In this document: positions 2,774 to 30,695 of the stretch, piece after piece | Position numbering within the stretch: position 1 is the stretch's first letter | Layout: every line of letters starts with the position of its first letter | NCBI GenBank assembly: GCA_042219765.1 | Contig: JBDGPI010000068.1 | Coordinates: 10,164 to 49,811, forward strand | Source: a bacterium | GTDB taxonomy: Bacteria; T1Sed10-126; CAZEBV01 | Direction: 5' to 3' | Length of the DNA: 39,648 nucleotides | Made by a program: the position numbers and the translations under genes | The notes under the pieces: model-generated | Databases searched by the model: none | The model's input: only the letters and a program-made list of their open reading frames with translations | Told to the model about the DNA's origin: nothing

Positions 2774-3040
2774 GACGTCCCCCCTTTTAAGTGTTGTAGA
2801 GATAAGTAGGTTCAACGACAATCGAAAACTCTCGTTTATACGTAACGCATACTGAGGTTAAATTCAATCGAGATTTGTAATAGTTTTCAGTAAGGCCATT
2901 AAATCATTCAGGTTCAGCAAACAGTACAATAATTGGCACCTGTTACCGAGAAATTTTTAGCCGGAGTAAATCCGACGATGGAAGTAAAATTTAATTTTTT
3001 GTAATTAACCAAAAATTTTCTGGTGGGAGGAAATACTGCT

Positions 3041-3823
3041 ATGGCAACGTCCCAGTTTCAAATTGACGGAGAAACGGCGATCGTCACGGGAGGATCCCGG
3101 GGTATAGGACGGGAAATAGCCGAACGAGTTATCCAGGAGGAAGTGAATGTTGCCCTCTGCTCCAGGGACTTGAGTCGGGTCGAGCCGGTGGCAGACGAAC
3201 TAGGTGAAACGTACTCGGCGGAGGCACTGGCCGTGGAATGCGACGTCCGCGACCGTGAAGCCGTGGATCGGATGGTGGACGAAACACTTCACGAGTTTGG
3301 ATCCCTAGATTTACTCGTTAACAATGCGGGAGCGAGTTTTATGGCACCGTTCGAGGAGATCAGTCCCAACGGCTGGGACTCGATCGTCAGCATTAATCTG
3401 GAGGGGACGTATAATTTCTGCCAGGCTGCCGGGGAAAAAATGATGGACTCCGATGGGGGTATAATAATTAACATGTCCAGCGTAGCCGGTCAATTAGGCG
3501 CTCCTTTCATGAGCCATTACGCAAGCGCTAAATCGGGGATTATCAACCTGACACGGAGCCTTGCACAGGAGTGGTCCTCGAAAGGAATCCGGGTCAACTG
3601 TGTGGCTCCGGGTTACGTGGCGACGGAAGGTGTGCAGGAGCAGATGGGCATTGAGGCGGGAGATGTTGATCGGTCGGACGTCGATCGAAACATGGGCCTG
3701 ACCGAGGAGATCGCCGACATTGTCCAGTTCCTTGCCAGTCCCGCGTCGTCCTACATTGTCGGGCAAACGATTACCTGTCAGGGCGTTCCCCCGAGCCTCG
3801 AGCTTCCCGAGGAAGGGAACTGA
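3041..3823 (+). CDS. SDR family oxidoreductase (FabG-like short-chain dehydrogenase/reductase)
   Basis: It has 'TGGSRGIG' (Rossmann TGxxxGxG), 'NNAG', and the catalytic 'YASAKSG' (YxxxK). The ATG at 3041 is preceded by GGGAGG. Confidence 0.9.
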   Translation: MATSQFQIDGETAIVTGGSRGIGREIAERVIQEEVNVALCSRDLSRVEPVADELGETYSAEALAVECDVRDREAVDRMVDETLHEFGSLDLLVNNAGASFMAPFEEISPNGWDSIVSINLEGTYNFCQAAGEKMMDSDGGIIINMSSVAGQLGAPFMSHYASAKSGIINLTRSLAQEWSSKGIRVNCVAPGYVATEGVQEQMGIEAGDVDRSDVDRNMGLTEEIADIVQFLASPASSYIVGQTITCQGVPPSLELPEEGN

Positions 3824-3980
3824 CACGAGACGGTCGTTCGATTCCCAAAACGTCTTATACAATCAGTCCACGGGGTATCTTTAGATCATAAATGTTGTAT
3901 GAGTAATGGTCTTTAGGAAGGGACTTTAATTGTTGTCGGGATACACAAACGGTAAGCCTACGGGAGAAACCAGACCCGTT

Positions 3981-4005
3981 GAAACTGTCCGGAAGGGACA
4001 GTTTC
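3981..4005. terminator. Perfect 10-bp hairpin between convergent genes (possible bidirectional terminator without a clear U-tract)
   Basis: The sequence is gaaactgtcc-ggaag-ggacagtttc. It sits between the SDR gene (+) and the small minus-strand ORF at 4080-4259. No T-run follows on either strand. Confidence 0.35.
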
Positions 4006-4079
4006 TGGGTTGGCCTCCGTAAGTAAAAACTTCTAGCCTGGCTCCTCTTCAGCTAAGCCGGTTTCGAATTCAGGCAAAC

Positions 4080-4259
4080 TTACTTGTCTTCCCGGGCGCT
4101 TGCGAGGGCGTCGAGCATTGGTGCCTGCCGTGACTCCTCACGGTTCCTGGGACTGATTGCAATAGTGAACTCCAGGTCGTGAACGTCGGAGTCAGAAAGG
4201 TCTTCCGGGAAAAAATCCGGACGAGGCCGTTCTCTCTCATCAGGGTGTTGACTAACCAC
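4080..4259 (-). CDS. Small acidic hypothetical protein (~59 aa)
   Basis: The GTG at 4259 lies 8 nt downstream of a GGAGG. The product is hydrophilic and acidic ('PEDLSDSDVHDLEF'). No family was recognised. Confidence 0.35.
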   Translation of the reverse strand: MVSQHPDERERPRPDFFPEDLSDSDVHDLEFTIAISPRNREESRQAPMLDALASAREDK

Positions 4260-4791
4260 AAAAATCACCTCCGTCGGTACGAGTTTGTTTTCGTAGAAAG
4301 TATAACGCTAATTTATTAAGATCGGGTTAACTCGAAACCAAAACCGGATTAACTTTCCTTACGGTCCTCGTGGAGTACACCCATTATCGGCAACTTTAAG
4401 TTTCCTCTGCTCTGAGATCATCATACCTTGAAACAAGTTCGTGTATACACCTTCTTCGGATACGTGACTATAGGTACGCGAAAGTGCAGTGAGGACTCCA
4501 ACTGCGTAAACGGGCGTCGGTAACCTTGCGTAGACGAAACGTTTGAAATCATCCAACAGAAATAATATTCATTGATTGAAAGACGGAAACTCCCGGGCGG
4601 TAAAGGAAACTTGAAGGCCTGAGATGATCACCCTGACCGCATTCGGTTCGGGAGGCACGGTCTGATCGAATTTCCGGGATAGATGGGACATTCTGAATCG
4701 GGCGGTTGCTATAAATCGGGAGTGCCTCACGTCCCTGTACAGGTTTTTGGCGAACCCGGTGGTAATTTTCGGAAGTCGAGGTACTGGATCC

Positions 4792-6306
4792 ATGGCGTCA
4801 GCGTCCGGCCGGGAAGTTTACGAAAAAGTTCGAGCGGTCAGCTACGGTGCTCTGGTGACGATCACTGGCACCGGTGTCAAACGCCTGCTGGTGGTCATCA
4901 CGAACGTACTTTTGACGCGATACTTGAGACCTCTCTCCTACAGTGCCTTCGCTTTGTGCTGGCGGGTGGTTCAGGGTTTAAAGCAATTCATCCCACTGGG
5001 TTCCACGGTAACCGTGGTAAGGGACGGAGCCCGTTCCCGTTCCAGAAGCGATCGATCCGAGACTGCCATGCTTGCCTACGGAACGACACTGATCGGCGGT
5101 CTGTTGTTCTCCGTCAGTATTTACTTACTTGCTCCAGTTTTAAATTTTTACACACTGAACGTCCCTGAATTGACTGTTGCCTTCGGAGTGGCGGAGCTCA
5201 CGTTACCCTTTACCGGTCTGGTTTTAATTAACGGTCACTTTTTAAGGGGCCAGGAAAAAATCGAGCAACTTTTACTGTTGAAGGATATCGGCTGGCCCCT
5301 GACACGGTTACTTTCAGTTATCGTCGCGCTGTATCTGAGTTACGAATTAATTGGCGTCCTGGCAATGCTCTGCCTGGGGACGGCTCTTCTTGGAATTTCA
5401 GGTGTTGTACAGACCCTTCGTGTAACCGATACGGGCTTCAGGGTCCCCTCGCTCAATCGAATGAAATCCTTCTACAATCACTCAATACCAAGTGCCCTGA
5501 CGTACGTTGGAAAATTGCTTCGGATTGACATTTTAATTTTCTTTCTGGGCTTCTTTGCCGTCGACCAGGCCCCCGGTCAATACAACGTGATACTGCTGCT
5601 CGGTAAGATTGCTATCATTCCCCTGATAGGATTCAACAAGCTCTTACCTCCCATAGCCTCGGATCTTTACGCTCGCAACGAGGTTGAGATTCTTAATGAT
5701 ACTTACAAAGCGATAACCCGCCTGATCACTGCCCTGACCCTTCCTCTGATTCTTTTCATGATGGTCTTCAGTCAGGAACTCCTGCACGTTTTTGGACGGA
5801 GCTACGTTCCTGCTTACGGTGCCTTGATCGTTTTTCTTCTCGGTCGGCTTGTTGGCAACTGCGTGGGAGCCACGGGCTGGTTGCTTCTCATGACCGATAA
5901 CCAGTACCTTCGGTTGACCATTGATTGGCTTCTGGCTCTAATTAATATTCCCCTCAGTTATTACTTGATTGTTCACTACGGTCTGTTTGGGGCCTCGGTG
6001 GTTTATCTGTTTCAAAGGGGTTTTCAGAATATGATTCAGCTGGTGGTACTGCGTAAACTTGAAGGTTTGTTTCCTTACGATTGGGCTTACTTGAAACCTC
6101 TGGTCGCTTCCTCCGTCATGGGGGTTACCATGGTTGTCGTTAAACTGGGTCAATTTCCCATTGCGGCTAAGGTTCTGCTCGGTGGAATTGTCGGTACCTT
6201 GAGTTACTCAATTGTTCTGAATTACTTAGGACTGGAGGAGCTCGACCGAAAGCTCATAAGTGGACTCCGTGATGGATTCAGGCGGTTCATTGAGATCCAG
6301 CGGTAA
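4792..6306 (+). CDS. Polysaccharide/oligosaccharide flippase, MOP (Wzx-like) superfamily membrane protein
   Basis: It is a ~500-aa polytopic membrane protein. The N-terminus 'GALVTITGTGVKRLLVVITNVLLTRYL' is typical of Wzx/polysaccharide biosynthesis proteins. I prefer the ATG at 4792 (GAGG upstream) over 4747. Confidence 0.75.
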   Translation: MASASGREVYEKVRAVSYGALVTITGTGVKRLLVVITNVLLTRYLRPLSYSAFALCWRVVQGLKQFIPLGSTVTVVRDGARSRSRSDRSETAMLAYGTTLIGGLLFSVSIYLLAPVLNFYTLNVPELTVAFGVAELTLPFTGLVLINGHFLRGQEKIEQLLLLKDIGWPLTRLLSVIVALYLSYELIGVLAMLCLGTALLGISGVVQTLRVTDTGFRVPSLNRMKSFYNHSIPSALTYVGKLLRIDILIFFLGFFAVDQAPGQYNVILLLGKIAIIPLIGFNKLLPPIASDLYARNEVEILNDTYKAITRLITALTLPLILFMMVFSQELLHVFGRSYVPAYGALIVFLLGRLVGNCVGATGWLLLMTDNQYLRLTIDWLLALINIPLSYYLIVHYGLFGASVVYLFQRGFQNMIQLVVLRKLEGLFPYDWAYLKPLVASSVMGVTMVVVKLGQFPIAAKVLLGGIVGTLSYSIVLNYLGLEELDRKLISGLRDGFRRFIEIQR

Positions 6307-6357
6307 ATTTACCGTTGTTATATTCTGGCCGAGTGGTTGAGCGGAAAGATGAGACTC

Positions 6358-6393
6358 GAGAAAATTCTTGTTGAATTTTTTCTCATTTTTTAC
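6358..6393 (+). terminator. Weak AT-rich hairpin plus T-run downstream of the flippase gene
   Basis: The gagaaaa ... ttttctc stem is followed by attttttac. The stem is short and almost all A-U. Confidence 0.3.
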
Positions 6394-6497
6394 AAACTGC
6401 TTAATGCGAGCTACCAATAGCTAATATCCAATGAAGTGAGAGGGACGACGATTCAGATGAATGACGCTTTTAATCCTATATCGGGATTAGATCGACG

Positions 6498-7934
6498 TTG
6501 AGAACCAGCAAACTGGTTTCCCTTGCCTTTCTGGTGTTTCTCCTCTTCCTGACCACTTCTCCTCTTCGGGCAAAAGTCATTGTTGTTCCGGTCGATGGGT
6601 CCATTGACCATGGCATGGCGGGATTTGTTCAACGAACCTTCCGGGACAATCCCGGTGCGGAAAAATTCATTATAAAAATGAATACCTACGGTGGCCGAGT
6701 CGATGCCGCCATGCAGATTGTCGAGGCAATTTCTGAAACGATTGATGATGGAACTCCCGTCGAGGCCTACGTTAAGAAAAAGGCCTGGTCCGCCGGGGCT
6801 CTAATTTCTCTGGCCTGTAGCAGAATCTGGATGGGTGAGGAGGGGTCGATCGGTGCCGCGACGCCCGTGAGCGGTGGTGGAGGACCGGTGAGCGAAAAGT
6901 ACGTCTCGGCGTTGAGGGCCGAATTTCGATCGCTGGCGCAGGCCAACGGCTATCCGCCGACTCTGTCGGAAGCAATGGTCGACCGCAAAATTAAAGTTCT
7001 GAAAGTCCGGTCCGGTAATAAAATAGAGTACGTGGACGAGCGGCGGTTCCAGGAGATTTCCGGGGACGACACCGGGGTGCGTAAACTCGGGGTCTACCTC
7101 TCGGACACTCACTTACTGACCCTTACGGCCGAGGAAGCCAACCAGACGGGGTTTACTTCTAAATTATATTCCGATTTCGATGCCTTTCTCTCGGACAAAA
7201 ATATTACCCAGCGCGACCTCGAGCGGGCGGAGCGAAGCTGGTCCGAGGAACTTGTGACCGTCCTGCAGATGTCCAGTGTATCGACGGTCCTGATGATTCT
7301 GGCGTTTCTGGGAATTCAGGTCGAAGCTAAAACGCCGGGGTTAGGCGTTCCGGGTGCAATTGGAATTAGTTCGTTGCTGTTGTTGCTCTGGGGGAAGTAC
7401 ATGGCCGGTCTTGCGGCCCACCAGGAAATTCTTCTGGTTTTAGTTGGATTGGGCCTGGTCTGTATTGAAGTTTTTCTCGTCCCCGGACTCGGTTGGGCCG
7501 GTATCCCGGGAGCGCTGTTGGTTCTTGTCGGTATTTACCTGATGTTTCTCCCGTTTGTCGTGCCGGCTGATCCCTGGGATTATGACCTTTTGAACGCAAC
7601 TCTGCGTAGCATTTCGCTGTCGTTGATCCTTTCGCTGGTGGGACTCTATTTTCTCTGGAAACACCTGCCGGACTCGCCGGTACTCAGCTGGGCGGTTCAG
7701 TCAACGAGCCTATCGTCCGAGGACGGTTACAGCGTTCAGAGCAAGCGCGAGAAGGACCTCGTTGGACGAGAAGGTCGAGCCCTGACGGATTTACAACCCA
7801 TGGGAAAAATACGAATAGACCGGGACCGTTATCCCGTTAGAGTCAAGGGGGATTTTGCCGAAAAAGGTGACACCGTGGAAGTGGTAGACGTTGAAAGTAA
7901 CGAGATCATTGTAAAGAAGGTAAATGAATCGTGA
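6498..7934 (+). CDS. NfeD-family membrane-bound serine protease (long form: ClpP-like domain + TM bundle + C-terminal OB domain)
   Basis: A signal peptide is followed by 'KVIVVPVDGSIDHGMAGFV'. The putative nucleophile context is 'AWSAGALI'. Several TM helices are followed by a C-terminal 'GREGRALTDLQPMGKIRID...GDTVEVVDV' NfeD OB motif. The start is TTG. Confidence 0.9.
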   Translation: MRTSKLVSLAFLVFLLFLTTSPLRAKVIVVPVDGSIDHGMAGFVQRTFRDNPGAEKFIIKMNTYGGRVDAAMQIVEAISETIDDGTPVEAYVKKKAWSAGALISLACSRIWMGEEGSIGAATPVSGGGGPVSEKYVSALRAEFRSLAQANGYPPTLSEAMVDRKIKVLKVRSGNKIEYVDERRFQEISGDDTGVRKLGVYLSDTHLLTLTAEEANQTGFTSKLYSDFDAFLSDKNITQRDLERAERSWSEELVTVLQMSSVSTVLMILAFLGIQVEAKTPGLGVPGAIGISSLLLLLWGKYMAGLAAHQEILLVLVGLGLVCIEVFLVPGLGWAGIPGALLVLVGIYLMFLPFVVPADPWDYDLLNATLRSISLSLILSLVGLYFLWKHLPDSPVLSWAVQSTSLSSEDGYSVQSKREKDLVGREGRALTDLQPMGKIRIDRDRYPVRVKGDFAEKGDTVEVVDVESNEIIVKKVNES

Positions 7935-8443
7935 GTATTCCCTACCTGATAGGACTTTTCGTCCTTGGAACACTGGCGATAGCGGCCGAGGGTGTTATGC
8001 CGGGTGGCATCCTTGGGGTTATGGGAGGAGTTTTGCTGGCTGTTATCGTCGGTAGTGCTTTTATCAACCAGGGTTTGACGGCTGGTTTTGCGTTTCTCTT
8101 TGCGGCAGTAATAGCATCGTTCCTCGCTTTACTTCTGAGTGTTTACGTTTTGCAGGAGACGTCACTGGGCAGTTGGATGATCCTTGAATCGCCCTCCAGT
8201 GATGATTCGGAGGGTCAACCCTACGAATTCCTGCTCGGCGAACAGGGCACGGCCCGGTCCGATCTATCCCCGGGAGGCCGGGTTGAGATTGATGGGGAAC
8301 TCTACAATACAGTAACGCAGGGGGAGTACGTTGAGTCGGGAACAACGGTCGAGGTCATTGAAGTCGAAGGAAATCGAATAGTCGTCGAGGAACCGTTTGA
8401 ATCCGAGGAATCTCAATCCGAAAAAGGAGGCGAGACAGCATGA
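7931..8443 (+). CDS. Short NfeD-family protein (TM helices + C-terminal OB domain, no protease domain)
   Basis: Its GTGA start overlaps the upstream stop. The N-terminus is hydrophobic, followed by '[24 protein letters not shown]...[16 protein letters not shown]'. Confidence 0.8.
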
Positions 8444-9450
8444 CGCTCTGGGGGTTTCTAACAGTAGTTGGACTGCTGGCGGCGGCAGTCGTCGGGATTG
8501 TCTTTTTGTTTTACGGCTGGTTGATGGTCCGAGCCGTCCTCTGTGGTGTCTGGGTTGGTCCAATAACCATGATCGGCATGCAGTTCAGGGGCATCAGCCC
8601 CCGTGTAATCGTCAATGCGATGATAAAGGGGGCTAAGGCGGGGTTGAGCCTGGATATGAAAGCCCTGCAGTCCCATTACCAGGCCGGGGGAGACGTGACG
8701 AATGTGGTGCGTGCCTTAATTGCCGCCGATCGGTCGGATATACCGCTTGATTACGAGGACGCTACTGCAATTGATCTGGCGGGTCGTGACGTTCTGGAAG
8801 CCGTCAAGATCAGTGTTCTACCGAAAGTGATCGACTGCCCGACGGACGACTCACGCAAGGAGTTCCTTGAAGCCGTTGCCCAGGATGGCATTCAGATCAA
8901 AGCGAAAGCTCGCGTTACCGTTCGAGCCAACATCGAGGAACTCGTTGGGGGAGCCAACGAGGAGACGATTGTCGCACGGGTTGGTGAGGGAATCGTGACG
9001 AGTATCGGTTCGGCCGAAACCCACAAGGAAGTTCTTGCCAATCCCGATCGAATTACCCGGGAAGTTCAGGAAAAGGGCCTCGACGCCAACACGGCGTTCA
9101 ATATTCTGTCCATTGATATCGGTGACATCGACGTCGGCCGTAACGTGGGAGCGCACCTGCAGGCGGATCAGGCCGAAGCCGACGTGGAAGTCGCCCAGGC
9201 CGAGGCAGAGGAACGACGGGCGATGGCCGAAGCCCGGGAACAGGAAATGGCCGCAAAGGTCCGTGAAAACGAAGCCGAAGTCATGAAGGCCAAGGCTCGT
9301 GTACCCCAGTCCATTGGTAAGGCCCTCAGTGGCGATAACCTCAGTATCATGGACTATTACGAGCTGAAGAACATTCAGGCCGACACGGACATGCGCCAGA
9401 GTATTAGCGGATCGGGCAATGATTCCGAAAACGATTCCTTCAACGTTTAA
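8440..9450 (+). CDS. floA: Flotillin-like protein FloA (SPFH domain, YqfA/UPF0365 family), full-length paralog
   Basis: Similarity to Bacillus FloA is strong by eye ('[13 protein letters not shown]', '[11 protein letters not shown]', 'VGEGIV', 'DQAEAD', 'AEERRAMA', C-terminal '[16 protein letters not shown]'). An ATGA overlap links it to the upstream gene, with GGAGG 9 nt upstream. Confidence 0.92.
8881..8931 (+). repeat. 51-nt segment identical to 9925-9975 (copy in FloA paralog 1)
   Basis: caggatggcattcagatcaaagcgaaagctcgcgttaccgttcgagccaac is identical in both genes, while the flanking codons differ at many synonymous sites. Confidence 0.9.
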
Positions 9451-20195: not shown

Positions 20196-21233
20196 ATGAC
20201 CAATCGAAGCCAATTCGTTTGTGCCCTGATGGTTATTTCAGGGTTATTGCTTTCGACGGGTGTCTTTGCGAAACCGGCGAAACGATCCCTCTGTGTGTTT
20301 GATGTCGTCGGCACCAATGGGCCCGTTTACAATGCCGTGAAAGAGTACCGAACGGCGGCCCTGAAGTGGGGCGTGAAGTTTGAACTGAAGCCGTACACGG
20401 ACGAGGCGGTTGCCCTGGAGGATTTTCAGGCCGGTCAGTGTGATGGGGTTGTTCTAACGGGCGTGCGGAACCGCCAGCTGGTGAAGTTTGCCGGGAGTAT
20501 CGACATGATGGGTGCCCTGCCGAGTTACCGTCACCTGAAAAAGGCAATACGGGCCCTTTCTCAACCGAAGGCCGCCCAGTACATGCGGACCGAGAAGTAC
20601 GAGGTGGCCGGGATTTTCCCCGCCGGAGCCGTCTACTTTTTTGTCCGACCCGAAAGCATGAGAAAAGTCGAGGGAACCCCGACAATCGATGATTTTGCCG
20701 GCAAAAAGGTGGCCGTGATGAGCTACGATCAGCAGGGGATTACCTCTATCAGGCACGTGGGGGCGACTCCTGTCCCCTCCGACGTTACCAGTTTTGCGGG
20801 AAAGTTTAACAACGGTAGCGTTGATTTAATCTACGCACCGGCCTCCGCCTACAATGCCCTTGAGCTTTACCGTGGGTTGAAGGAGGATGGTCGAATCATC
20901 GATTATCCGCTGGCCCAGCTGACTTATCAGATAACTCTTCGTCGGGACAACTTCTCCGATACGTTTGCGCAGACCTCTCGAGAATGGTCAGCGAACCAGT
21001 TCAATGAAGCCAAAAAGCGGATTGTAAAAGTCCGCCGGAAGATTCCCGAGGGAATGTGGCTTAATATACCGGATAAGCGAAAACCCAAGTACCGGGCCAT
21101 GTTTCGCAAAGTTCGACAGCGACTGAAAGAAGAAGGGGTCTACGACCCTCGGACGATGGTTTTCCTCCGCAATATTCGCTGTAACATCGACCCAAGTCGG
21201 GCCGAGTGCACCATGGACCAATCCGGTTCCTGA
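20196..21233 (+). CDS. Periplasmic solute-binding protein, DctP/TRAP-like (divergent)
   Basis: It has a signal peptide. Its size and segments ('GKKVAVMSYDQQGITSIRHVGATPVPSDV...NGSVDLIYAPASAYNALELY') resemble TRAP DctP-type receptors. Confidence 0.65.
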   Translation: MTNRSQFVCALMVISGLLLSTGVFAKPAKRSLCVFDVVGTNGPVYNAVKEYRTAALKWGVKFELKPYTDEAVALEDFQAGQCDGVVLTGVRNRQLVKFAGSIDMMGALPSYRHLKKAIRALSQPKAAQYMRTEKYEVAGIFPAGAVYFFVRPESMRKVEGTPTIDDFAGKKVAVMSYDQQGITSIRHVGATPVPSDVTSFAGKFNNGSVDLIYAPASAYNALELYRGLKEDGRIIDYPLAQLTYQITLRRDNFSDTFAQTSREWSANQFNEAKKRIVKVRRKIPEGMWLNIPDKRKPKYRAMFRKVRQRLKEEGVYDPRTMVFLRNIRCNIDPSRAECTMDQSGS

Positions 21234-21299: not shown

Positions 21300-23391
21300 G
21301 TGAGTAGCCCGGACGAGAACAGGGACGGATTCGTTCTCAAAAACTGGTTTGCCACCCTGCCGACGGCCCTGCTTCTGCTGGTCGTCATCTTCCTCGGTAT
21401 TGGAGAAGCCCTCCATTCTCAGTTACTAAACCTCGGCGAACAGACCTGGCCGGGGTATTTCAAACTCCGGTCGGACCTGTCCAGACCCGAGTGTGATCCC
21501 AATCCGGATATTGACGCTCGAGTTCAGAAGCAGGTCGAGGAAAAAAAAGCGGAACAGGAGGGTGGGCTGGGCCTTCTCCAGGAGCAGTCCGTGGACCGGG
21601 AGGCCATCCGGGAGTCCCTGCTGAGCCAGCGACGGGAGTGCCGTGAGACCTGGGAGGTCTACCGGGAGCAGGAGGAAAAACTGACGGCCACCGTAAGGCT
21701 CTACCGGTCGATTGAAAAAGGTGTGGCGTTCTTCAAGAAGATCAGCCTGAATTATACCCGCCATTTTCTCGTCTTTCTGATTGTGATTACGGCGATCACC
21801 GCCACGGCAACCCGACACCACGTCGTCCTGCGACCGATCAAAACGGAAGCGGATTTCTGGGTGAGTACCCTGGTTCAGTTCGGGGCAAACCTGGTTCTGC
21901 TTGTATCGATCCTTTTTTACTGGTACGAAACGTACTCCCGAAGCGGTGCGGTGGAGAATCCGCTTATTCACGTCTTCTGGATTGGTGGTTTTGGACTGCT
22001 TGCGGTGATAAATATCTATCAGATAAGCAGGGGGCCGGCCGGTGATCTACCGGCGGGGGAGCTGTACCGGACGCTGACCACGGTTCCGCTGTACGCTTAC
22101 ATCTGTCTTGTCGGAGCCATCTGGTTCTTCGCGGTGGAGGGGTATTTTTCGGGGATGATTGTTCAGCTTCGGAAGATGGAGCGGTTTCCGTCGCTGTTTT
22201 TGAAGGTGGGGCTTTACGTCTGGTCGGGAATGTTGTTGAAGTGGACCCGGCTTACCAAGTTGGTCCTGGACGTGATTCGGCCCTGGAAGCTCCCGCCCGA
22301 ATACGTGGTTATCGGGCTTGTGATGCTCTGTGCGTTTCCGACCGCGTACAGCGGGGCCTCGGGAATTTTCGTGATCGCCGCCGGTGCCGTTATTTACGAG
22401 GAACTGAGGAAACTGGGCACTCGCCGCCAGCTGTCCATTGCCGCGACGGCGATGTCTGGAAGCGGCGTGTTTCTGGAGCCCTGCCTGATTGTCGTCATTA
22501 TTTCCGCGCTGAACAAAGAGATTACCACGCAGCGTCTCTTTCACTACGGTTTTTACGTTTACCTTTTGATGGGTCTTGTTACGGCCGTGCTGGTGCTTCT
22601 GACCCGTCGCAACAAATTAACGTTTCGTTCACCGTCCGAGGCCCTTAAGCCCTGTTTGAAAGCACTTATCCCGCTTGTTCCCTACGTGGTATCGGGGGCC
22701 GTGGTCATCGCGGGATTTTATTATGGTCTGAATGTGCCCTTTAACGAATACTCGGCGCCGAACATCCTACCGTTCATGCTGTTGATCGTTGTGGCCTACG
22801 ATCAGTGGGCCTTTGGTCACACGGAGTCTGAGGATGACGTGATGCGGACGGAGGACCATGATTCGGATTCCTCCTGGGGAGGATTGTTTGACTATTTAAG
22901 TGCGACGGCCAGGACAGTCAAGCGAGCACATCGGTTCGTTACTGCTCTTAATGGCGACCACGATGATCCTCAGCGGTATCGTGGGCCGCTCCCGGGTTAT
23001 GTCGATGGTTCCCAGCGAGTTTGCGTCGGTCTGGGTGGCGATGGTCTTTTTGCTGGTTGTGTTAATCATTATCGGTATGACGATGGATCCGTACGGAGCC
23101 GTGATCCTGGTGAGCGCGTCGTTTGCTCCGGTGGCCTACAAGAACGGCATCGACCCGGTGCACTTCTGGCTGGTAGTTCTGGTCGCCTTCGAGCTGGGGT
23201 ACCTGACGCCTCCGGTGGCCCTTAACCAGCAGTTTACCCGGATGGTCATCGGCGAGGATGAGTACGAGGCGGTGGCGGCGACGGACCACCGGTACGATAG
23301 TTTCTGGCGAAATTACGAGTTTATCCTGCTTCCCATTGCGGTTATGTCAATCGTTCTTTTGATTGTCGCTTTTGGTCCCCTGCTTCTGTAA
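21300..23391 (+). pseudogene. TRAP-type transporter large/fused permease (DctM-like), reading frame broken near 22900-22935
   Basis: The frame starting at 21300 encodes polytopic membrane sequence up to about 22900, then an Arg/Gly-rich nonsense tail running to 23225. The frame opening at 22900 encodes a canonical DctM C-terminus ('MDPYGAVILVSASFAPVAYKNGIDPVHFWLVVLVAFELGYLTPPVALN') ending at 23391. Confidence 0.65.
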
Positions 23392-23618
23392 TTCGTTCGT
23401 GCTCTTATACCAAGTTACTGTCGGTCAACGATCTAATTCATTCGATTAAACCCTGTACTATCTATGCTACCCTACTTTTAGTAACAGGGTGTACAGACTG
23501 AAGTAGATTTCTTCTGTTTCACACTGGTTAAAAGGGAAATGTTAGTTTTCTCTCGCTTTCGGGAGGTTGAGAAGGTACTATTATGAACATTATTTGATGA
23601 AATAGATTGGAGACTTTA

Positions 23619-24323
23619 ATGACTGACGTAAACACTATGCCTCCCGGGCGGATAGTAACCGTCCTGTTCCTGTCCCTCCTTGGACTAAGCCCCCTGACAG
23701 CTCCGGCCTACGGCAAACCACTGGAAAAAGCGCTGGTCAAAAAGACAGTGAATCAGGTATTGGTTCACGAGAATATCGGCAGGGAAACTGATAGTCCCAG
23801 GCAAGCACGTGCCGGACGAGATATTCTGCAGGGCAGCATGGCCCTTGAGACACGACGTAAGTCCCGTTCCGAACTTTTGTTCGCCGATGGTAGTGTGGCC
23901 CGAATTGGATCCAATTCACTCTTCAGTTTTACCGAAACCGCACGCGAACTTCAGCTCGGTAGAGGAATTTTGCTGCTGCAGGTTCCGGGAAACTCGGAAA
24001 GAACGACTGTCAGAACGGCGGCCGCGTCGGCTGCTTTGACGGGGACGACGGTGATGCTGGAGCAACAACCCGATCAGTACGTGAAAATGATTGTTCTGGA
24101 GGGAACGCTTCAGGCTTATATCCCCGGTCGAATCGGAGAATCCCTGCCGGAACCGGTTTACGTGAATCTCGAGAAGCTGGTGGAAACGTCGGGGTTAATT
24201 CAGGAATTAGAACAACAGGGTAACATTGATGTTGCTGAGTTTGAGGATCGTAGTCTGGATCAGGAACAGTATCAGTCTTCCCTCGAGGAGCAGAAAAAGC
24301 AGATAGAAGTGGGGGATCTTTAA
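23619..24323 (+). CDS. FecR-domain protein (secreted/periplasmic)
   Basis: The signal peptide is 'VTVLFLSLLGLSPLTAPAYG'. The FecR-like core is 'ELLFADGSVARIGSNSLFSF...LQLGRGILLLQVPG...TVRTAAASAALTGTTVMLE'. The ATG at 23619 has GGAG 6 nt upstream. Confidence 0.8.
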   Translation: MTDVNTMPPGRIVTVLFLSLLGLSPLTAPAYGKPLEKALVKKTVNQVLVHENIGRETDSPRQARAGRDILQGSMALETRRKSRSELLFADGSVARIGSNSLFSFTETARELQLGRGILLLQVPGNSERTTVRTAAASAALTGTTVMLEQQPDQYVKMIVLEGTLQAYIPGRIGESLPEPVYVNLEKLVETSGLIQELEQQGNIDVAEFEDRSLDQEQYQSSLEEQKKQIEVGDL

Positions 24324-24332
24324 CCGACGGAT

Positions 24333-25817
24333 TTGAGTATCAACGGTCAGGGGGCTCGGGTAATACTCTCCTCGAATCAACTCGAAGGTCCCGAGTCCGA
24401 CGAGCGTCTGTACGAGAGTGTTTTTGGTAGTGGTAGTCTGACAAATAACGAAACTGAGGACGCAGTCAACGATAACCTGATCAGTCCTGACGATAACGTG
24501 CTTCCCTACCACTCCCAGTCGGTTAACGTCGACGGGAGCTCATCCATTGAAATGGCTTCACTGAAAGAAGTGGATTTCCCGCCAACTATTAGCAACGCAA
24601 GCAGTTATCAGGGAGGGATATACTCTCAGTCCCAGCTCGATGTCTCGCCGAACCAGTGGTACTTTCCGAACGATTCAAGCTGGGGAGCGTTTCTTGATTT
24701 CAACACGGCATTTCTCACGAATACCGGGTCTCGGCCGGTTTCGTCCTTTAAGTTTGAACAGTTCAGTTTGACCGGCAATCCTTCCGTTAACGTGCTCGAC
24801 GGTGGGCCGTCGGACCTTGCGTTTGCGACGACAACCCCTAACTACGATCTTAGCCTGACGAACGCCACCCTCTCGAACATCGACAGCCTTTCCCTGCTGG
24901 CGTCGGCGGGATCCGACGGTGGCTTGACCGTGAGTAACTTAACTCTCACCGAAGCGGGCGCGGACCTCGGGGTGTTCTCGCTGAACGGAAACGTTGGCCT
25001 TTCGAGTATTTCGCTTGCGTCGGACGGAAGCGGCCCCTCGGCCCGCTTATCGGCCAGGGCGGCTCCCTCCTTTGGAGGAATAACCCTGGGAGGCGTATCG
25101 GCCAACAGCATTGACCTCTGGTCGGACGGGTCGGTTAACGTTAATGGGGATCTGACGGCTTACGTTCCCGATAGTGAGACCTCCCAGACCAATGCCGTCA
25201 ACATGATCTCCTCGCTCACGTACCCGAGTGACATGGGTGTGTTACTGCAGAGCAGTACGTTAATAAATGCCGTCGCAAATTCGAGTAACGTGGGCGGCAC
25301 CATTCGCATGATTACCCAGGGGGCGGAGATCGATGTACGGGGGACTCTCGAAGCCGACCATGGAACAATTACGCTGCAGAATAACGGCGGTGGTCTGATC
25401 GATCTGAATGGGGTCACGGTCGGTATGGCAAGTAACGTCGACAACATTAAAGCTGAACTTTTCGGATCCGCGGGAAGTCTGTCTATTACTGGTGGCGCCA
25501 CGTTAAATGCGAGCGACATGATTGAGCTTTACGCCAGTCGGTCCGGGAGCAATGGCCTCGTTGAATTTAGTGGGAATGCGTCGATTACCGGAAGTGCCCT
25601 GAAGAAGATAACGGGCGGGACCGTGAGAATTACCAGCGGTAACACAGTGACAATTGACGGCAATGACCTCACGGTTACTGCGGATTCTGCTGAGTTCAGT
25701 ATCAGTAATTTTGGAACCGTTGATGATAACAACGGCCTTACGGCCGATGGTACCGGCGGCACGTTTCAGGGAAATGATGGAAATGAAACGATCATTCTGA
25801 AGCCGTTATCGAACTAA
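24333..25817 (+). CDS. Ser/Thr/Asn/Gly-rich beta-helix-like repeat protein; in frame with the FecR ORF and lacking its own signal peptide
   Basis: Repeats are adhesin/passenger-like ('LTVSNLTLTEAGADLGVFSLNGNVGLSSISL', 'GTITLQNNGGGLIDLNGVTVG', 'TVRITSGNTVTIDGNDLTVT'). The listed TTG start has no SD. It is separated from the FecR ORF only by the TAA at 24321-24323. Confidence 0.65.
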   Translation: MSINGQGARVILSSNQLEGPESDERLYESVFGSGSLTNNETEDAVNDNLISPDDNVLPYHSQSVNVDGSSSIEMASLKEVDFPPTISNASSYQGGIYSQSQLDVSPNQWYFPNDSSWGAFLDFNTAFLTNTGSRPVSSFKFEQFSLTGNPSVNVLDGGPSDLAFATTTPNYDLSLTNATLSNIDSLSLLASAGSDGGLTVSNLTLTEAGADLGVFSLNGNVGLSSISLASDGSGPSARLSARAAPSFGGITLGGVSANSIDLWSDGSVNVNGDLTAYVPDSETSQTNAVNMISSLTYPSDMGVLLQSSTLINAVANSSNVGGTIRMITQGAEIDVRGTLEADHGTITLQNNGGGLIDLNGVTVGMASNVDNIKAELFGSAGSLSITGGATLNASDMIELYASRSGSNGLVEFSGNASITGSALKKITGGTVRITSGNTVTIDGNDLTVTADSAEFSISNFGTVDDNNGLTADGTGGTFQGNDGNETIILKPLSN

Positions 25818-25931
25818 ATAAGCACCCGGACTGTGTTGTTCCAGTGGCCCGGAGTGAAGGGGGATGCCTGGCGAAACCGGCCAAGCCTTTACTGGCATTG
25901 CGTACACAAATTCGAAATCTAAGGTCAGACG

Positions 25932-26951
25932 GTGACTCTTGTGAAAAACCTTATTAGACGTTACGGAGCCGGCTGGAAGTGGTTCAGTCTTCCTCTGATA
26001 GTAATCTACTTCACTCAGCCGGTATTTCCTCAGGAACAGGCGGATCAGCTCCGCCAGCTTCTGGAGTTCGAGGACCGCCAGGAGAGAAATCTAAAGGATG
26101 AAGAGGATTCGGAGCAGGCCTTTCTGGAGGAGGCGGGTGATGATATGGGCCGGCAGGACATCCTCCGCAAACCGACCGAGCACAAGCCATTCCGGGCTTT
26201 TTCGGAGCTCAGCCAACGGGCCACCGACAACGCGGCCCTTTCTCCTTTTACGAAGCGATCCGATTTTATGTCCTCGGTCACGACAGGATTCGAGTACTAT
26301 CCTTACGAGGGGTCCCCGAAACCGATCAACCTCAGGGTCCGACAGCAAGTTTTCCGTTACCGTGACAACTCCGCCTTTGACTTCGATCGTTTGACGCTCG
26401 AAGCCAGAGGGACCCGAAAACGACAAATCATGGATTATCCGCTTTATTTTACTGGCCGCTACGGTTACGAGGAACTACGCAGTGGTTCCTTCCTGGGCGG
26501 GGCCGAGCACCGGAATTTGATTCGGTCATTTCACGTCGTTGCCGGAAACATACGCTTTTTTCATTTTCTTTCGCGATACGAAACACTGATCCCGAAGGTT
26601 GCCGTTGAAGTTGAACAGACGGATCGATTGAACGGTCGAAAAGGTAGTACCGCCGACAACGAGAAGAACAACGTTTCGCTGTCCTTAACCTACTACAGGG
26701 ATTACAGCCGGAAATTAAACTACTACGGTTCCCTGCGCTACCGGCATTCGGACTACAGGCATGTAGAAACGCTCAATGGTCTCAGGGAGGACCGGAACCA
26801 GGCCCTAACAGTCGGTGGGGAATGGACGTTCTTTTCGGGGGTTGCGATCAATCTCCACGGTTTCTACGCTCGGAATGAGTCCAACGGCCGCAGTTACGAG
26901 TACAGAGTGGGAAACCTGGGCAGCCAATTTAACCTTTCCTATGACTTTTGA
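25932..26951 (+). CDS. Outer-membrane beta-barrel protein (hypothetical)
   Basis: After an N-terminal hydrophobic segment and an acidic region come alternating-polarity strands rich in Y/R/G. The C-terminus '...FNLSYDF' ends in Phe. Its stop overlaps the start of the cyclase gene. Confidence 0.7.
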   Translation: MTLVKNLIRRYGAGWKWFSLPLIVIYFTQPVFPQEQADQLRQLLEFEDRQERNLKDEEDSEQAFLEEAGDDMGRQDILRKPTEHKPFRAFSELSQRATDNAALSPFTKRSDFMSSVTTGFEYYPYEGSPKPINLRVRQQVFRYRDNSAFDFDRLTLEARGTRKRQIMDYPLYFTGRYGYEELRSGSFLGGAEHRNLIRSFHVVAGNIRFFHFLSRYETLIPKVAVEVEQTDRLNGRKGSTADNEKNNVSLSLTYYRDYSRKLNYYGSLRYRHSDYRHVETLNGLREDRNQALTVGGEWTFFSGVAINLHGFYARNESNGRSYEYRVGNLGSQFNLSYDF

Positions 26952-29071
26952 CATTACTTTCGGATCCGGGTACTCCTTTGAGTCGTAAATTCCGCCGATA
27001 TTTTGTTCTTACCGTAATCTGCCTAAGCGTAATTGTGCTCACCGCAGGGAGTCAGGCTTACCGTCTTGAATTTCTTTACCGTTCCGAAGCCTATACGATG
27101 GATCTTCGGTCTCGGTTAGGACGGACCACGCCGGTTGACGGGAGACTTGTCTATTTGGCAATTGATCGTCCGTCTTACTGGGCGGATATTGGCGAGCGGA
27201 TTGACCGGAATGAAGTGGACGACCATCCCGCTCTCGGGAAGATGATGCAGAATTTTCCCTGGAACCGGTCCGTCTGGAGTGACGTTATTGAGCGAGTGGT
27301 TGGTGAGGGTGGGGCTGAGGTCCTGGTTCTGGATCTGCTTCTTGAAAATGAGGCCCCGGGCGATACTCGACTCCGGGAAACGTTGTCCGATTATTCCGAC
27401 AGCGTCGTGATCGGTGGGCGCATGGACTACCAGGAGTTTAACGGCACCAGGGTTGAATCACTCATAACACCGAGTTCAAGTCTTTTCGAAAATCCGACCG
27501 AAGAAGCACTCTCCGAGAGTGGACAGGTGGGTCACGTGAACCTCTGGGCCTGGCCCTGGAGTGGTAAGTACCGAACGATTGAATACCGTTTGCCAGTCAG
27601 GGGTGAGACCTTTGAATCTATTTCGGCCAGGGCCGTACGCTTTACTGGTCGTGAAGAACTCATACCGGCCGGTCAAAGTGATCGCCTCATTCGGTTCTCC
27701 GGACCACCGGGAAGCTATCGTCCCTATCCAATTTATCAGATTTTTATTGATGATATCTGGAACGATTTTTTTAAATCGACGGAGTTTTTCGAGGATAAAA
27801 TTGTCCTGGTCGGTCCGTCGGGCAACTGGCAACAGGACTACCACCCGACCCCGATGGCCGATCGGGAAATGGCAGGTCCTGAAATCCACCTGAATGCAAT
27901 AGCCGCCCTGCTCCACCAGGAGTTCCTTCAGCTCACACCGGCAGTCTGGACCTATAGCCTGATTGTGGTCTTTGGGCTGATGTCACTGCTGGGCGTTCTG
28001 ACGGGCTCGGTTTTCATCCGGCTAATGCTGCTGGCCCTGCTAAATATTCTGTACGGTGCCGTAGCATTGAGCGTCTACAACTGGTATGGATTGTACCTTC
28101 CGGTCATTGCTCCGATCTTGAGTCTTAACGGGTCCGGCCTCGGGCTCTTCGGCTACGAGTACGTTGTGGAACAGCGGGAACGGAGGCGATTACGGAGTAC
28201 CCTCGATCGTTACATTTCCGAGGACGTTGCGGCTGAAATTCTAGAGAGCCGAAGTGATTTCTACGAGGCATTGGGAGGCAGACGAAAACCGGTTACGGTC
28301 CTCTTCGCCGATATCAGAGGGTTTACGACTCTTTCGGAGAAACGCAGTCCCGAACAGATGGTCTCCCAGTTAAACGAGTACCTGACGCCGATGGTCGAGT
28401 TGATTCAGGAATCACGGGGCCGGCTGGATAAGTTTATCGGGGATGAGATTATGGCCGTCTGGGGGGATCTCTTTGAAGACACCGAGCCGTCGACAGGCGC
28501 TAACAGAGCCGTGGAGACGGCCGTTTCCATGCGGAAGACCCTGGAAAACTTGAACGCTAACTGGAAACAGAGGGGGGATCCCGAGCTGTCCTTTGGAATT
28601 GGGATCAATCACGGGGAGGCTCTTTTTGGTAACCTGGGTTCCGAACAGAGGATGGAGTTGACCGTAATTGGTGATGCGGTGAACCTGGCGGCTCGCCTTC
28701 AGGGTACCACAAAGCGATACGGGATTGATCTCGCGGTTTCCGAAACTGTGAAGGAACTGACGGAGGGAACCTTTATTTATCGGACCGTTGATCTGGTAAC
28801 GGTCAAAGGTAAAACGGAGCCAACGGAATTGTTCACGGTACTCGACCGGCGGTCCGATCAGTCCGAACCGGACTGGCTTGACCCTTACGAGGAGGGTGTG
28901 GGGTATTATCGTGACGGAGCGTTTGAGGACGCGCTCGGGGCGTTCGAGCGGAGCAGGGAAATCGGAGGGATCGACAACCTGCTGGAGTTGTACATCGAAC
29001 GGTGCCAGGACCGTCTTGAAAATCCCCCGGATTCGAACTGGAGCCCGGTGGTTAGTCTCTCAAGTAAATAA
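26948..29071 (+). CDS. CHASE2 sensor-domain adenylate cyclase (class III, IIIb-like) with a TPR-like C-terminal tail
   Basis: An N-terminal TM and a ~300-aa periplasmic CHASE2-like region are followed by three TM helices. The catalytic domain carries 'VTVLFADIRGFT', 'KFIGDEIMAVWG' and 'TVIGDAVNLAARL'. Confidence 0.9.
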   Translation: MTLLSDPGTPLSRKFRRYFVLTVICLSVIVLTAGSQAYRLEFLYRSEAYTMDLRSRLGRTTPVDGRLVYLAIDRPSYWADIGERIDRNEVDDHPALGKMMQNFPWNRSVWSDVIERVVGEGGAEVLVLDLLLENEAPGDTRLRETLSDYSDSVVIGGRMDYQEFNGTRVESLITPSSSLFENPTEEALSESGQVGHVNLWAWPWSGKYRTIEYRLPVRGETFESISARAVRFTGREELIPAGQSDRLIRFSGPPGSYRPYPIYQIFIDDIWNDFFKSTEFFEDKIVLVGPSGNWQQDYHPTPMADREMAGPEIHLNAIAALLHQEFLQLTPAVWTYSLIVVFGLMSLLGVLTGSVFIRLMLLALLNILYGAVALSVYNWYGLYLPVIAPILSLNGSGLGLFGYEYVVEQRERRRLRSTLDRYISEDVAAEILESRSDFYEALGGRRKPVTVLFADIRGFTTLSEKRSPEQMVSQLNEYLTPMVELIQESRGRLDKFIGDEIMAVWGDLFEDTEPSTGANRAVETAVSMRKTLENLNANWKQRGDPELSFGIGINHGEALFGNLGSEQRMELTVIGDAVNLAARLQGTTKRYGIDLAVSETVKELTEGTFIYRTVDLVTVKGKTEPTELFTVLDRRSDQSEPDWLDPYEEGVGYYRDGAFEDALGAFERSREIGGIDNLLELYIERCQDRLENPPDSNWSPVVSLSSK

Positions 29072-29143: not shown

Positions 29144-30409
29144 TCAGTTCGAACCATCCGAGCTAACCTCAAATGATACACCGCGTTCGTTCAGACGGTC
29201 CTTCAGGGGGAGTCCAATCCCCGAAGCCGGTGTGAGAATCCCACCCTCATGGGACGTGTCCGTGTCGTCGAGGGCAAGACAGACGGCCGATTCCCCGAGC
29301 ATTCTTGACGTTGCTCCGTATCCGGGGTCCCAGTTGGCGTTCACGCGGCCCTCGACCTGAAACTCCTCACCCGAGGCCGTTCCTTTTCCGAGGAGCCGGA
29401 CCTCGAACCAGCTGTTTTCAATGGTGTCACGGCTGGGTCCCTCACCGGACTCCGGTAAAACATACCGGCGCAAGAACGTTCGAAGCGGCGACAGGGACAT
29501 TGTGATTCCCCATGTGGCAAGAAGGGCCGAAATGCCGGTGGCTTTGATTGGACCCATCAAGTTCGATCCAGTCGGCATGCTCTCGGAGTAGCGAAAGTCC
29601 TGTCCCCAGGAATAATCCAGAAGGGCATTGCTCCGTCGTACGATTTTTTCGTTGGCAATTGCCATGAGGAAGGGCGCCGTCCACTGATCGAGGTCGTCGT
29701 CGTAGCGCGGGGATTTCTGCATGGAACCGTCCGGACCGTCACGCTCTCCCTCAGGGTTGAGTGAGTAGGGGGCTTCGAGGACTTTTCTGACATCGGCATC
29801 ACTGGACGCTTCCTTGAAGGTTTCCGCCATGCTTGCCAGTGTACCACCGCTCAGACTGAACGAACTACTTTTTGTAAAGGCCTTAATTTCGGAGCAGGGT
29901 GACCCATAGTTAGACCGGGCGTGGTCTTGAACCATCAGGGTGCCAATGTCACTTGGAACGGAGTCGAAACCACAGGCATGCACGATGCGTGCACCGTTCT
30001 CCCGGGCTTTTGAGTGAAACCGATCAATCATTCGCCGGATCCACTGAAGTTCACCGGTTAAGTCGCAGTAATCCGTCCCGTTTTCCACGCAGGCTTCGAC
30101 GAGGTCAGTACCGTAAACCGAGTACGGTCCGACCGTGGAGCAGACGACGCTGGTTCTTCCGGAAAGGTCATTAAGGCTCCCCCGATCAAAGGCGTCACCG
30201 ATAACAATGGGAAGTGACTCCCATCCGCCGGTGTTCTGTACCAGTCGCTGTTCGAGCTGCTCGAGTTTCTCCCGGTTTCGTCCGGCCAGGGCCAGCTCGA
30301 GGTCGGACGATTCGTAAGTGCTGGTAAGGTATTCGGCCGTTAGCTGGCCGGTGAATCCGGTGGCTCCCCAGAGGATGATGTCGAAGTCTCTATTGGCTTC
30401 CGGTGGGAT
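29144..30409 (-). CDS. Saccharopine dehydrogenase-like NAD(P)-binding family protein (trans-acting enoyl reductase-like), probable non-canonical ATC start
   Basis: The ORF-track start (GTG 30088) lies inside the conserved 'ACVENGTDYCDLTGE'. The same frame stays open upstream to the TAA at 30451-30449 and encodes the Rossmann motif 'FDIILWGATGFTGQLTAEYL'. AAGGAGG at 30422-30416 lies 6 nt before the ATC at 30409. Confidence 0.8.
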   Translation of the reverse strand: MPPEANRDFDIILWGATGFTGQLTAEYLTSTYESSDLELALAGRNREKLEQLEQRLVQNTGGWESLPIVIGDAFDRGSLNDLSGRTSVVCSTVGPYSVYGTDLVEACVENGTDYCDLTGELQWIRRMIDRFHSKARENGARIVHACGFDSVPSDIGTLMVQDHARSNYGSPCSEIKAFTKSSSFSLSGGTLASMAETFKEASSDADVRKVLEAPYSLNPEGERDGPDGSMQKSPRYDDDLDQWTAPFLMAIANEKIVRRSNALLDYSWGQDFRYSESMPTGSNLMGPIKATGISALLATWGITMSLSPLRTFLRRYVLPESGEGPSRDTIENSWFEVRLLGKGTASGEEFQVEGRVNANWDPGYGATSRMLGESAVCLALDDTDTSHEGGILTPASGIGLPLKDRLNERGVSFEVSSDGSN

Positions 30410-30415
30410 ACTAAC

Positions 30416-30422
30416 CCTCCTT
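30416..30422 (-). promoter_or_regulatory. Shine-Dalgarno AAGGAGG serving the ATC-initiated gene
   Basis: The minus strand reads ...cacaAAGGAGGgttagtATCccaccg... Confidence 0.6.
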
Positions 30423-30695
30423 TGTGGTGGTTGACAGTGAGTTTTTGATTAAAGCCTGAAAGTCTTCAAGTCACGTTGGAACAACAGTGGTGTCGGACGG
30501 TGTCCGCCAAGTTCCGGTAAATCGTCTGTTGTTGATTCAAGTATAAGCCTAAATACCCCGTCGTAAAACAACTGGATGAGGATCCGGTATTCCGATTTAA
30601 AAAAAGCAGGTTGAGTTTGGAGGAGCTCCGGTAAGTGGAAAGAATTTTAGCTTTAACGGACCGTGCAGGACACGGTGATCGTTTGGAGGTTGAGG

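Follow-up and report, generated by a model that had tools for sequence, protein, structure and literature searches.

CHASE2 is a widespread bacterial sensor domain for which we know of no ligand or activation mechanism. To our knowledge, the only CHASE2 case dissected genetically is that of NsrA with CyaK in Sinorhizobium, in which the partner of the cyclase is a large, fused outer-membrane protein. Here we analyse a locus that encodes a FecR-domain protein, a small barrel and a CHASE2 cyclase, within a 39,648-nucleotide stretch of bacterial DNA (the window; contig JBDGPI010000068.1 of assembly GCA_042219765.1, positions 10,164 to 49,811).

In Sinorhizobium meliloti, the CHASE2 cyclases CyaK and CyaD1/CyaD2 need NsrA to perceive a proteinaceous signal (PMC7529298, PMC13001267), and residues 600–1200 of NsrA have been described as a barrel (PMC7529298). 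Because a CyaD1 construct without CHASE2 makes cyclic AMP (cAMP) constitutively (PMC5498481), the evidence suggests that the domain is autoinhibitory. In Campylobacterota, genes for a CHASE2 adenylate cyclase, a phosphodiesterase, a FecR-domain outer-membrane protein and a tetratricopeptide repeat (TPR) protein are clustered, and a single pathway has been proposed for them (PMC9239204). An operon of Burkholderia and Pseudomonas encodes a response regulator, a LysM–FecR protein (COG4254), a CHASE2 histidine kinase and a DUF4136 protein (PMC5192318). That FecR clusters with CHASE2 is already known: PMC5192318 describes it for histidine kinases and PMC9239204 for cyclases (see also PMC5498481).

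We lean towards reading the window locus as a three-gene envelope signalling module, composed of a FecR–solenoid protein, a small barrel and a CHASE2 cyclase, with a relay from FecR to CHASE2. What carries this reading is the domain anatomy of the proteins, the origin of the first two open reading frames (ORFs) from one gene, the intact catalytic set of the cyclase and the linkage of the genes in other genomes; the cellular compartments are predictions.

Gene content of the locus

The initial annotation described four consecutive plus-strand genes whose products were placed in successive layers of the envelope. All four ORFs exist, but they represent only three ancestral genes, the first two being parts of one; the four-layer arrangement fails on the same ground, and on the lack of an export signal in ORF 2. 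The ORFs are as follows.

23607–24323 (alternative ATG start at 23619), plus strand: ORF 1, a signal-peptide-like segment at amino acids 16–34 and a FecR domain
24333–25817, plus strand: ORF 2, with TTG listed as its start
25932–26951, plus strand: ORF 3, 339 amino acids, a member of a rare family of small, putative outer-membrane barrels
26948–29071, plus strand: ORF 4, a CHASE2 cyclase starting at TTG 26948 or TTG 26978

We scanned ORFs 1–4 and 27 other ORFs of the window with Pfam, which covers most ORFs of at least 150 amino acids, the remainder being overlapping alternative frames. No Pfam family scored above threshold in ORFs 2 and 3. The 27 further ORFs contained no cyclic-nucleotide (cNMP)-binding or phosphodiesterase domain, in agreement with the earlier observation that no cAMP receptor or phosphodiesterase was visible in the window. 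The NCBI locus tags of the source metagenome-assembled genome are ABEK50_06855 and ABEK50_06860.

The FecR–solenoid gene

ORF 1 was first described as a signal-peptide FecR protein, and this description holds: a hydrophobic stretch occupies amino acids 16–34 (Kyte–Doolittle), followed by a Pfam match to FecR (PF04773, amino acids 80–167, E = 5e-11). ORF 2, by contrast, is not the separate 494-amino-acid adhesin-like protein that had been proposed, and is the C-terminal part of the FecR protein. We regard the two ORFs as interrupted halves of one ancestral gene, judging from their sequences and those of homologs, because they share a reading frame, homologs span both as single proteins, a conserved motif runs across the listed TTG start and ORF 2 is devoid of an export signal. 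The features of this gene are listed below.

23607–25817, plus strand: ancestral FecR, acidic linker and beta-solenoid gene, 736 codons on readthrough, with one in-frame TAA
23844–24107, plus strand: FecR domain PF04773 (Pfam, amino acids 80–167)
24141–24146, plus strand: site, after RIGES, of a missing 17-residue segment (homolog alignment, BLASTP gap)
24321–24323, plus strand: in-frame TAA that splits the FecR–solenoid gene
24324–24749, plus strand: acidic linker with predicted disorder (AlphaFold2 confidence, pLDDT, below 50; ORF 2 residues 1–138); contains the T[DN]L.I.G.G..V motif
24750–25703, plus strand: beta-solenoid-like region (ORF 2 residues ~140–457)

Between the two halves, in their common frame, lie the TAA (24321–24323) and three codons. 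In L001, the nearest relative with genomic context, one 722-amino-acid protein spans both ORF 1 (50% identity, over the first third of the protein) and ORF 2 (34%, over the remainder), and the codon aligned with the TAA of the window is CAG (Gln). A protein search with ORF 2 returned three further single polypeptides, P0006 (742 amino acids), P0007 (627) and P0008 (626), all full-length with an N-terminal FecR domain, as well as P0005, a fragment of 294 amino acids from a 1.8-kb contig, in which Pfam matched nothing. The homologs found are single proteins that combine FecR, linker and beta-solenoid in 554 to 2455 amino acids, and one custom hidden Markov model covers both halves. FecR was the sole Pfam domain above the curated cut-off in six family members scanned (554–2443 amino acids). 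The conserved motif T[DN]L.I.G.G..V overlaps the annotated TTG start of ORF 2 (24333), with the TAA two codons ahead of it, and by hydropathy ORF 2 has neither a hydrophobic N-terminus nor an export signal. No relative turned up when metagenomes were scanned with the FecR alignment of the close clade. For the annotation of the window, the correction is that two ‘hypothetical proteins’ are halves of one interrupted gene.

The TAA is not the only difference from homologs: ORF 1 is missing a stretch of 17 residues possessed by all four homologs in the alignment. Either the window copy has been truncated by mutation or it is affected by an assembly error; the module would then be damaged, or cut down to a short FecR-only protein with barrel and cyclase, or else intact with the stop as an artefact of assembly. 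Reading of the TAA as a sense codon was considered and rejected, as ORF 2 itself terminates in TAA and G+C content is 53%. We know of no bacterial code in which TAA is read as sense.

That the locus is a decaying remnant in this genome, with a FecR–solenoid pseudogene and a cyclase that works alone or not at all, is possible but doubtful in our estimation. The in-frame TAA and the loss of a conserved segment speak for decay, as does the frameshift near 22,900 in the adjacent DctM-type permease, and some relatives, such as L011, have split copies. Against decay, neither the barrel nor the cyclase is disrupted, the cyclase retains every catalytic residue, and the truncated product resembles the short FecR-only partners of 252–283 amino acids that occur naturally beside related cyclases; a single-base error or a mixture of strains is also possible in a metagenome-assembled genome.

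Broken genes of this family were seen at two other loci. In L011, the barrel gene (1759–2710) and the FecR–solenoid gene (2762–8477) are each broken into overlapping ORFs, and in L001 FecR–solenoid-like fragments (974–1471) lie between mscL and the barrel gene.

ORF 2 had also been suggested to form a beta-helix. Its AlphaFold2 model is disordered over residues 1–138 and consists of unbroken short strands over 140–457, with pLDDT of 65–90 over about 240–450 and a predicted template-modelling score (pTM) of 0.58. A Foldseek search with this low-confidence model gave nothing at E ≤ 0.001, but the list was almost entirely made up of beta-helix proteins, headed by a two-partner-secretion domain (HMW1 TPS, E = 0.5) and including autotransporter passengers, none of them significant. 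The alignments behind the two models, of ORF 2 and of the barrel, were shallow (one of 3 sequences, the other of 5) and both models are of low confidence, such that the Foldseek results inform on fold class only. The strand-rich model and the predominance of beta-solenoids thus lend moderate support, without a significant match, and a beta-helix fold is plausible, not demonstrated. The solenoid region is conserved with P0005–P0008. Signs of canonical two-partner secretion were absent: Pfam detected neither the Haemagg_act (TPS) domain nor the Omp85 and POTRA domains of TpsB in ORFs 1–4 and six family members.

The CHASE2 cyclase

The identification of ORF 4 as an inner-membrane CHASE2 cyclase is well supported, with Pfam matches to CHASE2 (PF05226, amino acids 30–347, E = 5e-25) and Guanylate_cyc (PF00211, E = 6e-23).

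26990–27061, plus strand: first transmembrane helix of the cyclase (hydropathy)
27035–27988, plus strand: CHASE2 domain PF05226, periplasmic (Pfam, amino acids 30–347)
27932–28147, plus strand: hydrophobic block after CHASE2, read by eye, not by a predictor, as three transmembrane helices
28286–28825, plus strand: class III cyclase catalytic domain PF00211 (Pfam), with the full catalytic set

Hydropathy marks segments at amino acids 15–38 and 329–378, and the protein stays hydrophobic onward to about amino acid 400. The resulting architecture (transmembrane helix, CHASE2, transmembrane block, Guanylate_cyc) is the same in 315 homologs. Catalysis by class III cyclases depends on two metal-binding aspartates, a Lys/Thr pair that selects adenine and an Asn/Arg pair that stabilizes the transition state. 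The cyclase domain aligns with Pseudomonas aeruginosa CyaB (3r5g) at E = 7e-31, and D455, D499, K495, T572, N579 and R583 match the same residues there. With these three pairs complete, we predict that ORF 4 makes an active adenylate cyclase.

The stop codon of the barrel gene had been reported to overlap the cyclase start, as an argument for co-translation. The 4-nucleotide overlap exists if translation begins at TTG 26948, but TTG 26978, which leaves a 26-nucleotide gap, fits the N-termini of homologs equally well. NCBI places the start at a GTG 29 codons downstream (within 26948–27037), for a protein of 678 amino acids. That start would drop the basic N-terminus and half of the first transmembrane helix, and homolog N-termini favour TTG 26948 or 26978.

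A rare family of small putative barrels

ORF 3 was proposed to be an outer-membrane barrel ending in Phe. The terminal Phe is there, and the evidence for a barrel is weak but consistent. Its features are a hydrophobic stretch at the N-terminus, a helix predicted for amino acids 35–71, about 13 strands and the C-terminus ...SYDF; the Phe is invariant, together with an FRYxD motif, across six family members aligned end to end. The NCBIfam model TIGR03014 (EpsL) matches at 1e-6, with 28 bits against a cut-off of 275 and over the C-terminal 92 amino acids only. PF10082 (BBP2_2) has no match in the window protein and matches two of six homologs (best 1e-6); in P0129, a further barrel homolog, it matches weakly. 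The AlphaFold2 model is poor (pLDDT 48, about 13 strands); its Foldseek matches are all outer-membrane barrels, including autotransporters and FapF, at weak scores (E ≥ 1.4e-3, template-modelling score about 0.2–0.25). Taken together, these results point, weakly but consistently, to an outer-membrane barrel distantly related to BBP2_2 and EpsL.

Searched exhaustively with a profile, 1.84 billion cluster representatives yielded 175 members at E ≤ 1e-3, of which 53 reach E ≤ 1e-10. A few are short fragments and two have ~440 amino acids; the others are 250–375 amino acids long, mostly 300–345. The family is rare and previously uncharacterised. The close barrel alignment retrieved no relative from the genome collection, and the contigs of P0129, which came from the exhaustive search, are too short to show neighbours.

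Linkage of the three genes in other genomes

The gene families are not unlinked elsewhere: barrel, FecR–solenoid protein and CHASE2 cyclase recur together, in loci that were retrieved in three independent ways, by solenoid, by cyclase and by barrel. The trio occurs, in varying order and orientation, in L002–L005, L007–L012, L025 and L029 and in 19 further metagenomic loci; the named relatives are Verrucomicrobiota. The barrel retrieved 80 metagenomic loci. For a FecR-family gene 67 of these were informative, and in 63 such a gene starts on the same strand no more than 300 nucleotides after the barrel; for a CHASE2 cyclase 58 were informative, and 19 have one upstream in divergent orientation. 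These counts overstate the independent cases, as the metagenomic loci include near-duplicate contigs.

The solenoid-based search yielded 18 genome loci of Verrucomicrobiota; the barrel adjoins the FecR–solenoid gene in 11, and a divergent CHASE2 cyclase is present as well in 5. Contigs L002–L005 have the layout cyclase (minus strand), barrel, FecR–solenoid gene. The cyclase-based set comprises six homologs (L025–L030) with 37–45% identity: L025 has cyclase, FecR–solenoid gene and barrel; L029 has a short FecR gene and a barrel, divergent from the cyclase; L026 has the cyclase and then a FecR–solenoid gene at the contig end; and L027 is cut off by a contig end.

Gene order differs among the window, L001, L025 and L003, and the genes stay together. 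The barrel and the FecR gene form a near-obligate pair, to which the CHASE2 cyclase is a frequent, optional third partner; the clade of the window keeps the cyclase despite its shuffled gene order.

Some retrieved loci contain other genes of possible relevance to cyclic nucleotides. In L002 (4875–8894), the FecR–solenoid gene is followed by genes for a response regulator, a cNMP-binding histidine kinase and a Ser/Thr kinase; this arrangement hints at a cAMP output route encoded in the same cluster, one that has no counterpart in the window. Among the neighbours surveyed, cNMP_binding, Peptidase_C39, ABC_membrane and ABC_tran each occur in one protein, and the single ORF with sufficient length, just downstream of a barrel gene in L020 (10984–14124, 1046 amino acids), probably carries them; it would then be a cyclic-nucleotide-regulated ABC exporter. 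L027 (988–5102) contains a second, more distant CHASE2 cyclase, flanked by a short FecR gene (252 amino acids) and a gene for an OMP_b-brl/DUF6268 protein (307 amino acids), so that a different type of barrel takes this role.

A proposed relay and its alternatives

In the scheme that we favour, the protein composed of FecR domain, acidic disordered linker and beta-solenoid would be exported by the Sec pathway. Barrel and solenoid would make up the outer-membrane or surface end of the module, and the FecR domain, going by precedent, would act as a periplasmic adaptor that touches CHASE2. This contact may lift the autoinhibition by CHASE2 and lead to synthesis of cAMP. The module would operate like NsrA of S. 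meliloti, which is encoded immediately upstream of cyaK and without which cAMP is not made in response to the signal.

Several points weigh against this reading, beyond the redundancy of the locus counts. The proposed protein contact and control of the cyclase draw on linkage and precedent, and the structure models of both solenoid and barrel are of low confidence. The FecR–solenoid gene of the window is interrupted and the TRAP permease gene upstream is frameshifted, and the copy may be non-functional. About two thirds of the informative barrel-retrieved loci (39 of 58) have no adjacent cyclase, and two of the cyclase homologs, L028 and L030 (37–41% identity), have neither partner within 9 kb. 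Several of the cyclase-less pairs sit beside giant SprB-repeat surface proteins. Because most pairs have no adjacent cyclase and several have such neighbours, we take the barrel–FecR pair to be an envelope module of more general use, one that also joins partners other than cyclases. In S. meliloti, the FecR protein SMc02177, encoded beside cyaD1, is not needed for perception (PMC5498481). The earlier proposal of an envelope-to-cAMP relay by dedicated partners keeps the recurrent linkage in its favour, but the coupling is not obligatory and the association of FecR with CHASE2 had already been published.

The same observations could mean that barrel and FecR–solenoid protein make up a self-contained unit of surface display or secretion with a role of its own, for example in adhesion or in the architecture of the cell surface. 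The barrel would export or anchor the solenoid in a type V-like manner, and the cyclase would be a neighbour because the unit is expressed under cAMP control, or through shared regulation, with the pair not acting as a sensor upstream of it. The pairs without a cyclase, which also occur in several Verrucomicrobiota genomes, fit this explanation; they often have tandem FecR paralogs and divergent genes for SprB-repeat giants. So does the finding that smc02177 (FecR) and smc02178, beside cyaD1, are targets of cAMP/Clr and dispensable for perception (PMC5498481). The Foldseek lists contain two-partner-secretion, autotransporter and FapF structures, none at significant scores. However, FecR is a protein–protein signalling adaptor whose pairing with CHASE2 sensors of varied output is widespread (PMC5192318, PMC9239204), the cyclase has been retained through the shuffling of gene order in the clade of the window, and the genetics of NsrA place a FecR-bearing outer-membrane protein upstream of CHASE2 cyclases (PMC7529298). 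We consider an autonomous unit unlikely.

The SprB-repeat neighbours, often the divergent gene where no cyclase is present, are encoded upstream (minus strand) in L065, L073, L080, L093, L102 and L112; they reach more than 1500 amino acids and have 11–13 SprB repeats. Other neighbours in cyclase-less loci include integrases, glycosyltransferases and small proteins with LysM and TPR. Among 39 neighbouring ORFs scanned in the cyclase-less Verrucomicrobiota loci L013–L024, LysM was found in 5 and TPR in 4, and the one ORF resolved individually (L013, 6546–7211, ~220 amino acids), which runs convergently to the FecR genes, contains both domains. In the systems of Burkholderia and Sinorhizobium, it is LysM and TPR to which FecR is fused.

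A bolder reading has the linker threading the pore of the barrel, with the solenoid on the surface and FecR in the periplasm, a two-piece, type V-like receptor spanning the outer membrane that would transmit events at the surface solenoid mechanically to CHASE2. We judge this geometry improbable. If true, it would constitute a previously undescribed route of signalling across the outer membrane and the first defined mechanism of CHASE2 activation. Whatever its geometry, a compact split version offers separate small parts, each of which can be expressed, deleted and modelled.

FecR might instead be a periplasmic inhibitor of the cyclase that the outer-membrane barrel sequesters under envelope stress, by the logic of YfiR, YfiB and YfiN, in which case the module would report the state of the envelope and not a ligand. 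The gene set matches in its three compartments (a periplasmic protein, an outer-membrane protein and an inner-membrane cyclase whose sensor faces the periplasm), CyaD1 suggests autoinhibition by CHASE2, and short FecR-only partners exist (L027, L029). We nevertheless rate such a mechanism as very unlikely: the locus shows no homology to YfiR, to YfiB (an OmpA-like lipoprotein) or to YfiN, NsrA acts positively in signal perception (PMC7529298), and a solenoid of 300–2000 amino acids would be left unexplained.

Flanking genes

Directly upstream of the FecR–solenoid gene, a DctM-type TRAP permease gene (21300–23391, plus strand) is read as two overlapping ORFs (21300–23225 and 22900–23391), with a frameshift near 22,900 and matches to PF06808 in both halves. 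It is preceded by a gene for an AdeT-type solute-binding protein (20196–21233). Downstream of the cyclase, on the minus strand, lies a saccharopine-dehydrogenase-like gene (29144–30500) whose frame is open upstream of the listed GTG through a Rossmann motif, GATGFTG. As this upstream stretch contains no canonical start codon, the gene may use a non-canonical one. Rfam and tRNA scans were empty, and a promoter and terminator scan, which found fewer sites than in shuffled sequences, is uninformative on operon structure.

Comparison with known systems

The initial annotation compared the locus with FecR-type sigma regulators that relay signals from TonB receptors. The two share a periplasmic FecR domain (PF04773) and the relay of an outer-membrane event inward. 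This analogy did not survive closer inspection, given that the locus lacks an anti-sigma region, a TonB-dependent transducer and an ECF sigma gene. The window FecR protein has no cytoplasmic anti-sigma region or transmembrane anchor, only PF04773 after a signal-peptide-like N-terminus, and Pfam found no TonB_dep_Rec, Plug, STN or sigma-70 r2/r4 domain in ORFs 1–4 or the 27 other window ORFs. We rejected FecA/FecR/FecI-type signalling, as its defining features are missing.

YfiBNR consists of an outer-membrane lipoprotein, a periplasmic repressor and an inner-membrane diguanylate cyclase, with c-di-GMP as the messenger. The likeness lies in the control of an inner-membrane nucleotide cyclase by periplasmic and outer-membrane proteins across three compartments; the window locus has no homologous component, and the messenger of YfiBNR is c-di-GMP.

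Other systems combine FecR and CHASE2. As in the Burkholderia and Pseudomonas operon, a secreted FecR-domain protein is encoded directly beside a CHASE2 sensor, but there the output is a histidine kinase, LysM takes the place of the solenoid and no barrel is present. With the Campylobacterota cluster the window shares a CHASE2 cyclase accompanied by a FecR-domain envelope protein; it differs in that the scanned ORFs include no phosphodiesterase or TPR gene and in that the partners are a solenoid and a small barrel.

NsrA, too, is a FecR-domain envelope protein, with an outer-membrane barrel, encoded next to a CHASE2 class III cyclase. Although tblastn with the CHASE2 domain alone gave no match to plasmids, the full-length protein reached S. 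meliloti pSymB, where an ORF of 1219 amino acids (L006, 3538–7197) has FecR at amino acids 85–179 (2e-15) and TPRs and overlaps the start of a CHASE2-cyclase ORF. By position and size, we infer that these two unannotated ORFs are NsrA and CyaK; the overlapping stop and start codons of the two genes are a further resemblance to the window, if the cyclase there starts at TTG 26948. Whereas NsrA is one 1219-amino-acid polypeptide of FecR, TPRs and a ~600-amino-acid barrel, the window encodes a FecR–solenoid protein and a separate barrel of 339 amino acids. Pfam detected no TPR in window ORFs 1–3, neither BLAST nor hhalign found similarity between the window proteins and NsrA, and the barrel is unrelated in sequence to the NsrA C-terminus. 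An NsrA ortholog was accordingly rejected, there being no TPRs and the barrel being separate and unrelated in sequence. The locus is best described as a split variant of the pairing of a FecR-bearing outer-membrane partner with a CHASE2 sensor, and what it adds to the known systems is this split form, with its small barrel family and its FecR–solenoid family.

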